Assembly (NCBI GenBank): GCA_964016885.1
Contig: OZ024751.1
Span: forward strand, 13,206,001-13,270,000
Length of the DNA: 64,000 bases
Direction of reading: 5' to 3'
Source of the DNA: Eledone cirrhosa
Lineage: Eukaryota
Part shown: positions 7,145 to 13,664 of the stretch, piece after piece
Numbering within the stretch: the first letter of the stretch is position 1
Layout of the letters: every line of letters starts with the position of its first letter
Notes under the pieces: generated by a model
Database searches by the model: none
The model's input: the letters and a program-made list of their open reading frames with translations, nothing else
Told to the model about the DNA's origin: nothing
Translations under genes and position numbers: made by a program

Positions 7145-10100
7145 TAAACTCCATTCCACTTATTCTAGTAGGCTTTTATATTTATATGTGAGCTGATAGA
7201 GTACTGTCTAAGGATTTACAGAAACCCATGAAGCTAGATTTAACACCTTTCTAGTGGGTCCGGGTATGATTTTACATTCATTTAAATTATTGACGTATTG
7301 TTTTATTGATATTTTTTATCTGTTTGGCCCGAATCTTCCTTTATCGATTTTAAATCGTATGGTTGATTGTAGACTTGTTCTATATGTGACGGTATTTTAA
7401 CGATAGTTATAGCTCTGATTCATCTGAATTATTGAGCCCTCTGCCGCTCATATCGGATTTCGTTTTTCGTTAACTCGTGCGCCGATTTTTCGATACTCGA
7501 TCTTTCTAATATATTTAGCTCTGGACATAGCTATCCACCAGTTAATTTTATTGCTCATATTTTGTCGATTCTATTGAGTGATGAATAGCTTTTGTTTTAT
7601 TTTAACATGTCTATTGAGCACTCTAATTCGATATGTGTATTTCCACATTCACTCGAATTATTTTCGCGGATATAGGGGTCATCTCCCTTGTCTAATGCCA
7701 TGTGCGTTTTTCACCGCTAGTTGACTCCTTTGCCGCCAGGATAAAACTCGTTGACGACGTAAACTCCATTCCACTTATTCTAGTAGGCTTTTATATTTAT
7801 ATGTGAGCTGATAGAGTACTGTCTAAGGATTTACAGAAACCCATGAAGCTAGATTTAACACCTTTCTAGTGGGTCCGGGTATGATTTTACATTCATTTAA
7901 ATTATTGACGTATTGTTTTATTGATATTTTTTATCTGTTTGGCCCGAATCTTCCTTTATCGATTTTAAATCGTATGGTTGATTGTAGACTTGTTCTATAT
8001 GTGACGGTATTTTAACGATAGTTATAGCTCTGATTCATCTGAATTATTGAGCCCTCTGCCGCTCATATCGGATTTCGTTTTTCGTTAACTCGTGCGCCGA
8101 TTTTTCGATACTCGATCTTTCTAATATATTTAGCTCTGGACATAGCTATCCACCAGTTAATTTTATTGCTCATATTTTGTCGATTCTATTGAGTGATGAA
8201 TAGCTTTTGTTTTATTTTAACATGTCTATTGAGCACTCTAATTCGATATGTGTATTTCCACATTCACTCGAATTATTTTCGCGGATATAGGGGTCATCTC
8301 CCTTGTCTAATGCCATGTGCGTTTTTCACCGCTAGTTGACTCCTTTGCCGCCAGGATAAAACTCGTTGACGACGTAAACTCCATTCCACTTATTCTAGTA
8401 GGCTTTTATATTTATATGTGAGCTGATAGAGTACTGTCTAAGGATTTACAGAAACCCATGAAGCTAGATTTAACACCTTTCTAGTGGGTCCGGGTATGAT
8501 TTTACATTCATTTAAATTATTGACGTATTGTTTTATTGATATTTTTTATCTGTTTGGCCCGAATCTTCCTTTATCGATTTTAAATCGTATGGTTGATTGT
8601 AGACTTGTTCTATATGTGACGGTATTTTAACGATAGTTATAGCTCTGATTCATCTGAATTATTGAGCCCTCTGCCGCTCATATCGGATTTCGTTTTTCGT
8701 TAACTCGTGCGCCGATTTTTCGATACTCGATCTTTCTAATATATTTAGCTCTGGACATAGCTATCCACCAGTTAATTTTATTGCTCATATTTTGTCGATT
8801 CTATTGAGTGATGAATAGCTTTTGTTTTATTTTAACATGTCTATTGAGCACTCTAATTCGATATGTGTATTTCCACATTCACTCGAATTATTTTCGCGGA
8901 TATAGGGGTCATCTCCCTTGTCTAATGCCATGTGCGTTTTTCACCGCTAGTTGACTCCTTTGCCGCCAGGATAAAACTCGTTGACGACGTAAACTCCATT
9001 CCACTTATTCTAGTAGGCTTTTATATTTATATGTGAGCTGATAGAGTACTGTCTAAGGATTTACAGAAACCCATGAAGCTAGATTTAACACCTTTCTAGT
9101 GGGTCCGGGTATGATTTTACATTCATTTAAATTATTGACGTATTGTTTTATTGATATTTTTTATCTGTTTGGCCCGAATCTTCCTTTATCGATTTTAAAT
9201 CGTATGGTTGATTGTAGACTTGTTCTATATGTGACGGTATTTTAACGATAGTTATAGCTCTGATTCATCTGAATTATTGAGCCCTCTGCCGCTCATATCG
9301 GATTTCGTTTTTCGTTAACTCGTGCGCCGATTTTTCGATACTCGATCTTTCTAATATATTTAGCTCTGGACATAGCTATCCACCAGTTAATTTTATTGCT
9401 CATATTTTGTCGATTCTATTGAGTGATGAATAGCTTTTGTTTTATTTTAACATGTCTATTGAGCACTCTAATTCGATATGTGTATTTCCACATTCACTCG
9501 AATTATTTTCGCGGATATAGGGGTCATCTCCCTTGTCTAATGCCATGTGCGTTTTTCACCGCTAGTTGACTCCTTTGCCGCCAGGATAAAACTCGTTGAC
9601 GACGTAAACTCCATTCCACTTATTCTAGTAGGCTTTTATATTTATATGTGAGCTGATAGAGTACTGTCTAAGGATTTACAGAAACCCATGAAGCTAGATT
9701 TAACACCTTTCTAGTGGGTCCGGGTATGATTTTACATTCATTTAAATTATTGACGTATTGTTTTATTGATATTTTTTATCTGTTTGGCCCGAATCTTCCT
9801 TTATCGATTTTAAATCGTATGGTTGATTGTAGACTTGTTCTATATGTGACGGTATTTTAACGATAGTTATAGCTCTGATTCATCTGAATTATTGAGCCCT
9901 CTGCCGCTCATATCGGATTTCGTTTTTCGTTAACTCGTGCGCCGATTTTTCGATACTCGATCTTTCTAATATATTTAGCTCTGGACATAGCTATCCACCA
10001 GTTAATTTTATTGCTCATATTTTGTCGATTCTATTGAGTGATGAATAGCTTTTGTTTTATTTTAACATGTCTATTGAGCACTCTAATTCGATATGTGTAT

Positions 10101-13100
10101 TTCCACATTCACTCGAATTATTTTCGCGGATATAGGGGTCATCTCCCTTGTCTAATGCCATGTGCGTTTTTCACCGCTAGTTGACTCCTTTGCCGCCAGG
10201 ATAAAACTCGTTGACGACGTAAACTCCATTCCACTTATTCTAGTAGGCTTTTATATTTATATGTGAGCTGATAGAGTACTGTCTAAGGATTTACAGAAAC
10301 CCATGAAGCTAGATTTAACACCTTTCTAGTGGGTCCGGGTATGATTTTACATTCATTTAAATTATTGACGTATTGTTTTATTGATATTTTTTATCTGTTT
10401 GGCCCGAATCTTCCTTTATCGATTTTAAATCGTATGGTTGATTGTAGACTTGTTCTATATGTGACGGTATTTTAACGATAGTTATAGCTCTGATTCATCT
10501 GAATTATTGAGCCCTCTGCCGCTCATATCGGATTTCGTTTTTCGTTAACTCGTGCGCCGATTTTTCGATACTCGATCTTTCTAATATATTTAGCTCTGGA
10601 CATAGCTATCCACCAGTTAATTTTATTGCTCATATTTTGTCGATTCTATTGAGTGATGAATAGCTTTTGTTTTATTTTAACATGTCTATTGAGCACTCTA
10701 ATTCGATATGTGTATTTCCACATTCACTCGAATTATTTTCGCGGATATAGGGGTCATCTCCCTTGTCTAATGCCATGTGCGTTTTTCACCGCTAGTTGAC
10801 TCCTTTGCCGCCAGGATAAAACTCGTTGACGACGTAAACTCCATTCCACTTATTCTAGTAGGCTTTTATATTTATATGTGAGCTGATAGAGTACTGTCTA
10901 AGGATTTACAGAAACCCATGAAGCTAGATTTAACACCTTTCTAGTGGGTCCGGGTATGATTTTACATTCATTTAAATTATTGACGTATTGTTTTATTGAT
11001 ATTTTTTATCTGTTTGGCCCGAATCTTCCTTTATCGATTTTAAATCGTATGGTTGATTGTAGACTTGTTCTATATGTGACGGTATTTTAACGATAGTTAT
11101 AGCTCTGATTCATCTGAATTATTGAGCCCTCTGCCGCTCATATCGGATTTCGTTTTTCGTTAACTCGTGCGCCGATTTTTCGATACTCGATCTTTCTAAT
11201 ATATTTAGCTCTGGACATAGCTATCCACCAGTTAATTTTATTGCTCATATTTTGTCGATTCTATTGAGTGATGAATAGCTTTTGTTTTATTTTAACATGT
11301 CTATTGAGCACTCTAATTCGATATGTGTATTTCCACATTCACTCGAATTATTTTCGCGGATATAGGGGTCATCTCCCTTGTCTAATGCCATGTGCGTTTT
11401 TCACCGCTAGTTGACTCCTTTGCCGCCAGGATAAAACTCGTTGACGACGTAAACTCCATTCCACTTATTCTAGTAGGCTTTTATATTTATATGTGAGCTG
11501 ATAGAGTACTGTCTAAGGATTTACAGAAACCCATGAAGCTAGATTTAACACCTTTCTAGTGGGTCCGGGTATGATTTTACATTCATTTAAATTATTGACG
11601 TATTGTTTTATTGATATTTTTTATCTGTTTGGCCCGAATCTTCCTTTATCGATTTTAAATCGTATGGTTGATTGTAGACTTGTTCTATATGTGACGGTAT
11701 TTTAACGATAGTTATAGCTCTGATTCATCTGAATTATTGAGCCCTCTGCCGCTCATATCGGATTTCGTTTTTCGTTAACTCGTGCGCCGATTTTTCGATA
11801 CTCGATCTTTCTAATATATTTAGCTCTGGACATAGCTATCCACCAGTTAATTTTATTGCTCATATTTTGTCGATTCTATTGAGTGATGAATAGCTTTTGT
11901 TTTATTTTAACATGTCTATTGAGCACTCTAATTCGATATGTGTATTTCCACATTCACTCGAATTATTTTCGCGGATATAGGGGTCATCTCCCTTGTCTAA
12001 TGCCATGTGCGTTTTTCACCGCTAGTTGACTCCTTTGCCGCCAGGATAAAACTCGTTGACGACGTAAACTCCATTCCACTTATTCTAGTAGGCTTTTATA
12101 TTTATATGTGAGCTGATAGAGTACTGTCTAAGGATTTACAGAAACCCATGAAGCTAGATTTAACACCTTTCTAGTGGGTCCGGGTATGATTTTACATTCA
12201 TTTAAATTATTGACGTATTGTTTTATTGATATTTTTTATCTGTTTGGCCCGAATCTTCCTTTATCGATTTTAAATCGTATGGTTGATTGTAGACTTGTTC
12301 TATATGTGACGGTATTTTAACGATAGTTATAGCTCTGATTCATCTGAATTATTGAGCCCTCTGCCGCTCATATCGGATTTCGTTTTTCGTTAACTCGTGC
12401 GCCGATTTTTCGATACTCGATCTTTCTAATATATTTAGCTCTGGACATAGCTATCCACCAGTTAATTTTATTGCTCATATTTTGTCGATTCTATTGAGTG
12501 ATGAATAGCTTTTGTTTTATTTTAACATGTCTATTGAGCACTCTAATTCGATATGTGTATTTCCACATTCACTCGAATTATTTTCGCGGATATAGGGGTC
12601 ATCTCCCTTGTCTAATGCCATGTGCGTTTTTCACCGCTAGTTGACTCCTTTGCCGCCAGGATAAAACTCGTTGACGACGTAAACTCCATTCCACTTATTC
12701 TAGTAGGCTTTTATATTTATATGTGAGCTGATAGAGTACTGTCTAAGGATTTACAGAAACCCATGAAGCTAGATTTAACACCTTTCTAGTGGGTCCGGGT
12801 ATGATTTTACATTCATTTAAATTATTGACGTATTGTTTTATTGATATTTTTTATCTGTTTGGCCCGAATCTTCCTTTATCGATTTTAAATCGTATGGTTG
12901 ATTGTAGACTTGTTCTATATGTGACGGTATTTTAACGATAGTTATAGCTCTGATTCATCTGAATTATTGAGCCCTCTGCCGCTCATATCGGATTTCGTTT
13001 TTCGTTAACTCGTGCGCCGATTTTTCGATACTCGATCTTTCTAATATATTTAGCTCTGGACATAGCTATCCACCAGTTAATTTTATTGCTCATATTTTGT

Positions 13101-13652: not shown

Positions 13653-13664
<12 letters not shown>
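7145..13664 (+). repeat. Head-to-tail tandem array of a 615 bp non-coding unit, ~10.6 apparently identical copies, inserted in (TA)n
   Basis: aaactccattcc starts at 7146, 7761, 8376, 8991, 9606, 10221, 10836, 11451, 12066, 12681 and 13296; the last copy stops at tctttcTAATATAT where it merges into (TA)n; no ORF >=60 aa. Confidence 0.97.
7193..7260 (+). ncRNA. Variant hammerhead-like motif, repeated in every 615 bp unit
   Basis: CTGATAGA GTA..TAC A GAAA CCCA tgaag CTAGA..TCTAG TGGG TC; stems II and III can form; two extra As relative to the canonical core; stem I weak. Confidence 0.4.

Follow-up and report, generated by a model that had tools for sequence, protein, structure and literature searches.

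A 64,000-nucleotide (nt) window of the Eledone cirrhosa genome, the whole stretch of DNA that was analysed and to which all coordinates refer, contains a long tandem array of a 615-bp non-coding unit within (TA)n, unit position p corresponding to window position 7145 + p. In a period scan of the array, identity was 1.0 at a lag of 615 and 0.32 at the next best lag, and alignment of the units gave 0 mismatches across 10 full units, the 11th being partial (369 nt; 10.60 copies). The longest stop-free frame in the unit is 62 amino acids (aa), and CpG is abundant, with an observed/expected ratio of 27/19.8 (1.36) in the unit and 0.53 in the remainder of the window. TA runs border the array on both sides, and its right end coincides with the unit's own TAATATAT. 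All of these features, from the exact identity and non-integer copy number to the absence of an open reading frame, the CpG content and the flanking (TA)n with the right end at an internal motif, had been pointed out in a preliminary description of the window and were reproduced here. The perfect identity and the length of this array are those of the assembly. A family profile run against the 64-kb window found no member beyond the array, which is one insertion of a real, very young, dispersed non-coding mobile family.

Across the 3.0-gigabase genome, 328 candidate places for the 615-bp unit were recovered, 19 of which were scored in a sample biased toward long identical arrays. Seventeen of these 19 arrays finish at unit position 369 followed by (AT)n, the remaining two run toward N gaps, and the start phases all differ, in line with the dispersed (TA)n arrays with one fixed end and varied start phases that the preliminary description had predicted. 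The exact junction of the right end with TA occurs 750 times genome-wide and internal read-through of the end site 1,425 times, with 0 occurrences in the control for each. Rather than a single-locus satellite, the data thus show 750 dispersed ends and arrays that are uniform inside. Among the first 100 listed of the 750 junctions, 99 of them on contig C1, element lengths range from 47 bp to 26.6 units; six of the 100 arrays were followed further and reached 16.3–26.6 units, one of them bounded by a gap. A TA run lies immediately left of the element in 63/94 junction loci and none directly left in 31/94, and a perfect 126-bp 5′ inversion was seen in 1/94. The 5′ ends are scattered round the unit with no excess of whole-unit lengths (4 vs 4.0 expected), one of 21 bins, unit positions 121–150, being enriched (16 vs 4.8 expected, p = 4.8e-5). 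The (TA)n target makes any target-site duplication unreadable.

The family has relatives of graded age. Sister families (72–87% identity) gave 2,033 pattern matches, with the homologous end point in 30/30 loci examined, and more distant families gave 1,444 pattern matches with spacings of about 540–620 bp; older relatives of about 540–630 bp share the end point with the young 615-bp family. Contigs from a public run (X2) carry both the fixed end followed by ATAT and a head-to-tail joint, so that neither is peculiar to this assembly. Traits of retrozymes (low-GC non-coding tandem units in many dispersed copies) are found together with those of Penelope-like elements (fixed 3′ end, variable 5′ truncation and partial tandems, the inversion being present in only 1/94), and the insertion bias toward (TA)n is shared with Neptune/Naiad-type elements (PMC8557442). 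No unit (0/24, + strand) contains RNA polymerase III A and B boxes and T5 runs are present in every unit, unlike a tRNA-derived short interspersed nuclear element.

At the 5′ junction of one array (L038), an inverted copy of the flanking DNA is folded back onto 5 element bases, and at that of another (L033) an extra 29-nt piece of the element, accompanied by TA-like filler, precedes the main copy. A sister-family array (C1:81709325-81747067) extends over ~38 kb, roughly 60 units by spacing, and exceeds every young-subfamily array examined. Each of the public runs X1–X9, with six organism codes, has at least half of the unit's sampled words, a signal that may come from relatives, transfer or contamination; in X2 the window-like form stands at depth 25 and the sister form near 300. 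None of the runs listed as containing the unit's words was of RNA, and runs X13 (presumed to be RNA) and X12 gave mostly 35–40-nt AT-rich pieces, which have no bearing on expression.

The variants within arrays inform on how these arose. Among 27 arrays of at least 3 units, 20 variant types were distinguished, each borne by every unit of its array, with 227 all-unit substitutions, which form a nested ladder, vs 43 other substitutions, some of which are alignment noise. A change that is fixed throughout a long, young array implies a bottleneck of one unit. Minority substitutions, counted over 39 arrays (212 kb), amounted to 49, of which 15 were T>C and 0 A>G relative to the element (p = 0.0019, the other five of the six substitution pairs tested being non-significant), and the T>C changes divide 8/7 between genome strands. 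The minority substitution rate of ~2e-4, later mutation included, falls within the 5.7e-5 to 2.2e-4 errors given for retroelement reverse transcriptases (RTs) on circular RNA (PMC11331410); the comparison concerns the rate and not the direction of the bias. Variants at single sites were scattered among the units of L047 (G>T in 5/13 units) and L202 (A>T in 5/26 units), and L244 has three states at one site within the 12 units shown; such scattered variants may reflect a polymerase passing again and again over one damaged base of a single template. Copies of ≥99% identity (n = 20) have a median length of 7.0 units and those below 95% (n = 29) one of 1.0, and this drop in length with divergence counts against later satellite growth. 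Overall, the variant patterns favour an error-prone polymerase that copied a single-unit template over and over.

The unit is also structured, as first described, the linear fold giving a z-score vs shuffles of -3.8 on the + strand and -1.25 on the minus strand, and in circular folds of three subfamilies the + strand again outperformed the minus strand (12 shuffles each). Both-sided changes occur in 13/137 consensus pairs (19 units), a value that 0/500 shuffles reach and that is not to be taken as a probability since the sequences are related and the structure comes from the same alignment. The conserved + strand pairs include many G-C/G-U and A-U/G-U alternations. Part of this structure is an invariant module (Table 1), the stem of which covaries (CTAGA/TCTAG, CTGGA/TCCAG, TCGG/CCGA), its fixity being partly a consequence of the search pattern. 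The GUC/C of the module lies between two helices and the enriched 5′-end bin falls just 3′ of it, making 7260/7261 (unit 115/116) a candidate cut and ligation site. When the 3′ side was allowed to differ, the pattern had only 20 matches (4 in the control), most of which look from the matched letters like mutated copies of the family; judged from these letters, none of the 20 was an evident autonomous carrier of the module. The module pattern had 0 matches in viral contigs. In metagenome contigs, the 83 matches, 73 of which are one near-identical stretch, were attributed to chance; this stretch falls within an open frame at the single locus inspected and has no profile match to the unit.

The preliminary description had placed a hammerhead core at this part of the unit. 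The letters CTGATAGA...GAAAC...GTC are indeed present but form no hammerhead. Rfam (E ≤ 10) returned no hammerhead or other ribozyme in the window, the unit or the distant relative L180, and a relaxed type I hammerhead descriptor matched 0/24 units and 0/31 distant motifs, the same descriptor detecting the minimal hammerheads that Penelope-like loci carry in this genome (positive control). The unit passes solely when stem I is set to 1 bp; the A9 base varies, U4 is unconserved and distant families have CGGA or CAGA in place of CTGA. The proposed link between TCTATTGAGCACTC and a motif in a Penelope-like remnant at ~61223 did not hold either, being a 15/16 match (E = 1.6), and the family profile finds nothing else in the window. 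Attempts to fit the module by eye to hepatitis delta virus (HDV)-like, hairpin or box C/D consensus features failed across the family alignments, Rfam being the sole formal test. A 43-nt stretch is preceded by CAG and followed by GT, but a role of these as splice sites is doubtful, as back-splicing would not restore the full unit.

Table 1. Features of the 615-bp unit array and its borders in the 64,000-nt window.
Feature	Position	Strand	Basis or remark
Tandem insertion, 10.60 identical copies of 615-bp non-coding unit	7145..13664	+	Period scan
Single unit, phase given by the variable 5′ end of the insertion	7146..7760	+	Period scan
Left-side (TA)n target	7129..7145		
Right-side (TA)n target	13659..13711		
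Fixed 3′ terminus TAATATAT at unit position 369, which matches the (TA)n target; putative priming site	13657..13664	+	17/19 arrays, 750 genome junctions
CTGATAGA, start of the previously proposed core; partly hairpin-paired, unconserved in distant families	7193..7200	+	
Invariant module: CAGAAACCCA, 5-nt bulge, covarying stem, GGGTC-CGGGT	7219..7265	+	Similar to the hammerhead half that contains stem III and GUC
CCCG, paired with CGGG in the helix after GUC; loop ~11 to 70 nt among families	7328..7331	+	
Conserved structured stretch up to the fixed end; candidate RT binding site	7400..7514	+	

A mobilising partner was sought among the 10,595 GIY-YIG candidates of the genome, with 45 loci examined of 150 listed. 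Long frames among these candidates carry RT and GIY-YIG domains with a cysteine linker, which we take to be of the Neptune type. Neptune-type RT plus GIY-YIG elements of this genome terminate at (TA)n, and in one such family an internal TATTAATATA site is either read through or serves as the end, as in the unit. Similarity of the 3′ end of the unit to an autonomous Penelope-like family was not found within the 45 loci and, because no shared sequence was found, it is by target and anatomy only that a Neptune-type partner is suggested. A Dong/R4-like long interspersed nuclear element in the examined loci was discarded, as it ends in (AAT)n and has nothing visibly in common with the unit.

Taken together, the array is likely (at a probability of about 0.6) an insertion of a retrozyme-like, non-autonomous family, made by a Penelope-type enzyme acting in trans and circling a single-unit RNA. 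In this mechanism, a Penelope-type reverse transcriptase/endonuclease, possibly of the Neptune type, would nick (TA)n, prime at the element's UAAUAUAU in a target-primed reaction, and travel repeatedly round a predicted + strand RNA circle of one unit, copying it until the enzyme dissociates. In the most speculative step, unit-length RNA would be cut and closed at GUC/C between the two invariant helices, either by a degenerate or protein-assisted hammerhead derivative or by a host nuclease and ligase. A more specific version, which is tentative and for now rather doubtful, is that these families are circular-RNA retroelements whose circles are sealed by a self-cleaving or protein-assisted motif not described before, in which only the GAAAC-stem-GUC half of a hammerhead survives, each array being a single-molecule record of one enzyme going round one RNA up to 26 times, template lesions included. 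The rolling-circle reading put forward in the preliminary description is therefore retained in part: the variant patterns favour repeated copying of a monomer template, whereas the hammerhead and the Penelope motif link fall away.

A number of observations weigh against this mechanism. The 45 Penelope-like loci share no sequence with the unit, bar one inserted family member, and the Penelope-like copies compared are 91–98% mutually identical, none being demonstrably active, while young-looking Helitrons are present in the genome. With no hammerhead or other Rfam ribozyme, circle formation is left unexplained; three 5′ ends fall at unit position 107, beyond the proposed cut, and the 5′ pile-up could equally be due to stalling at structure or to TA microhomology. 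The T>C bias demonstrates copying of one strand and not the RNA nature of the template, the scattered variants could reflect gene conversion or assembly mixing, and perfectly homogeneous arrays of 16–19 units exist, for which linear multimer transcripts are a potential source.

The same RT route could have used a linear template, either a multimeric read-through transcript of an array already in place or linear monomers, with the enzyme jumping from the end of one to the next; the long homogeneous arrays and the lack of a detected ribozyme would fit, as would the in vitro observations that Penelope RT starts internally on unprocessed RNA and that hammerhead cleavage is dispensable (PMC11167929). 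This is nonetheless unlikely, since 572C>T (L202) and 65A>T (L046), present in every unit of long arrays, require a one-unit bottleneck, no phase has junction indels across passes, and L244 shows three outcomes at one site. Copying of DNA was also considered, in the form of a non-autonomous Helitron-like element replicated by an HUH rolling-circle mechanism from a DNA circle, with the fixed end as origin. The genome has 3,704 Helitron-domain candidates with long open frames, and origin-initiated copying likewise yields one fixed and one variable end. What makes a Helitron origin quite improbable is the lack of a terminator and of any excess of whole-unit ends despite up to 26 passes through the putative origin, together with the target microhomology of the fixed end, the strand-biased substitution rate of ~2e-4 and the many G-C/G-U and A-U/G-U alternations on the + strand; a comparison of the unit with 10 Helitron loci, covering the Rep region and not the termini, gave only 30-nt matches (E ~3).

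Growth of the array by unequal exchange, satellite-style, after insertion of about one unit is slightly less probable again: this process is favoured for retrozyme arrays in a 2026 preprint (bioRxiv 10.64898/2026.07.22.740005), and conversion can produce scattered shared variants, but length is greatest among the youngest copies (a median of 7.0 units for those of ≥99% identity vs 1.0 below 95%) and the single-unit changes are strand-biased. A canonical type I hammerhead non-LTR (long terminal repeat) retrozyme is very unlikely, even though GAAAC-CC...GG-GUC, the G before CUGA and the C after GUC fit hammerhead numbering in the young subfamily with a 1-bp stem I minimum, given the 0/24 units and 0/31 distant motifs matched by a descriptor that finds positives in the same genome, the unconserved U4 and A9 and the blank Rfam result. 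An assembly or concatemer artefact, which perfect unit identity might suggest, has a negligible chance in view of the 750 loci with different flanks, the graded subfamilies, and the X2 contigs, which have both this end and the head-to-tail joint.

Other TA-flanked elements lie in the same window. A 226-bp element at 26680–26905 has 2,486 candidate places, with an inverted 5′ piece in many copies. Its CTGATCA-G-TGG-C-GAAAC-GCGC-GTC looks like a minimal hammerhead in which position 8 is C and stem III is palindromic, and the element failed the relaxed hammerhead descriptor; by eye, its 3′ end resembles that of the Penelope-like loci L163/L165. Immediately left of the array, a small inverted-end element (6793–7131) is presumably Tigger-like, the array occupying the TA run at its end, and to the right a TA-flanked repeat (13712–14016) has CTGATGA on the minus strand and an end similar to one that flanks L038. 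Short TA-flanked elements at 25560–25630, 26499–26587 and 62670–62750 share TATTGAGTAC ~55 nt from one end and are possibly other (TA)n-targeted non-autonomous families. Elsewhere in the genome, Helitron-domain matches on contigs C19, C20 and C27 show the same 362-aa frame every ~110–150 kb, suggesting giant tandem units.

No published description of the family was found in the open-access literature, repeat libraries (Repbase/Dfam) and preprint supplements not being covered. As described for metazoan non-LTR retrozymes (PMC7229834; bioRxiv 10.64898/2026.07.22.740005), the family consists of non-coding, low-GC, structured tandem units found as dispersed monomers and multimers, for which a circular RNA intermediate and Penelope-type mobilisation have been proposed (PMC7229834). 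The 615-nt size, considered unusually large in the preliminary description, is ordinary, since non-LTR retrozyme consensus lengths of 51–972 bp are published (bioRxiv 10.64898/2026.07.22.740005). Unlike retrozymes as portrayed in these sources, the unit is without a type I hammerhead, their defining and detection-driving feature, and has a strict (TA)n target and one fixed end; homology to the Penelope pLTR was not found for the unit among 45 of 150 listed GIY-YIG loci (10,595 candidates). Multicopy head-to-tail insertions are also known from non-autonomous Chlamys Penelope-like elements such as MRC1, a clade that, like the unit, is mostly without canonical hammerheads and prefers microsatellites (PMC8557442, PMC9940879). 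These elements are algal, no circle is proposed for them in the portions of those reports used here, and they generally share 3′-end sequence with autonomous families, which was not found for the unit. Inverted 5′ pieces, as in 1/94 unit loci, are typical of the Penelope-like group (PMC8557442).

Closer to hand, the Neptune-type families L146 and L149 of this genome resemble the unit in their (TA)n ends and the use of an internal TA-like site as terminus, and differ in encoding RT and GIY-YIG, in their minimal hammerheads and in having no sequence in common with the unit. Helitron-derived tandem arrays are likewise head-to-tail and arise from rolling-circle copying; the unit arrays, unlike these, are without terminator or whole-unit ends and have target microhomology and strand-biased errors. 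Reverse transcription of circular RNA has been proposed for Penelope and retrozyme tandems since 2014, where it is called tentative (PMC4209133), and a 2026 preprint leans on later unequal crossover instead (bioRxiv 10.64898/2026.07.22.740005). In rolling-circle sequencing in vitro, all-unit vs single-unit variants separate template from reverse-transcriptase errors (PMC11331410), and as hundreds of very young arrays carry that variant pattern, the circular-template question becomes testable on genome data. Hammerhead-based screens would miss the family by design, so that such elements may be undercounted, and the invariant module, at 47 nt, is a candidate that would be inexpensive to assay for cleavage. 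While failing the defining hammerhead test, the family behaves as a non-LTR retrozyme or a non-autonomous Penelope-like element.

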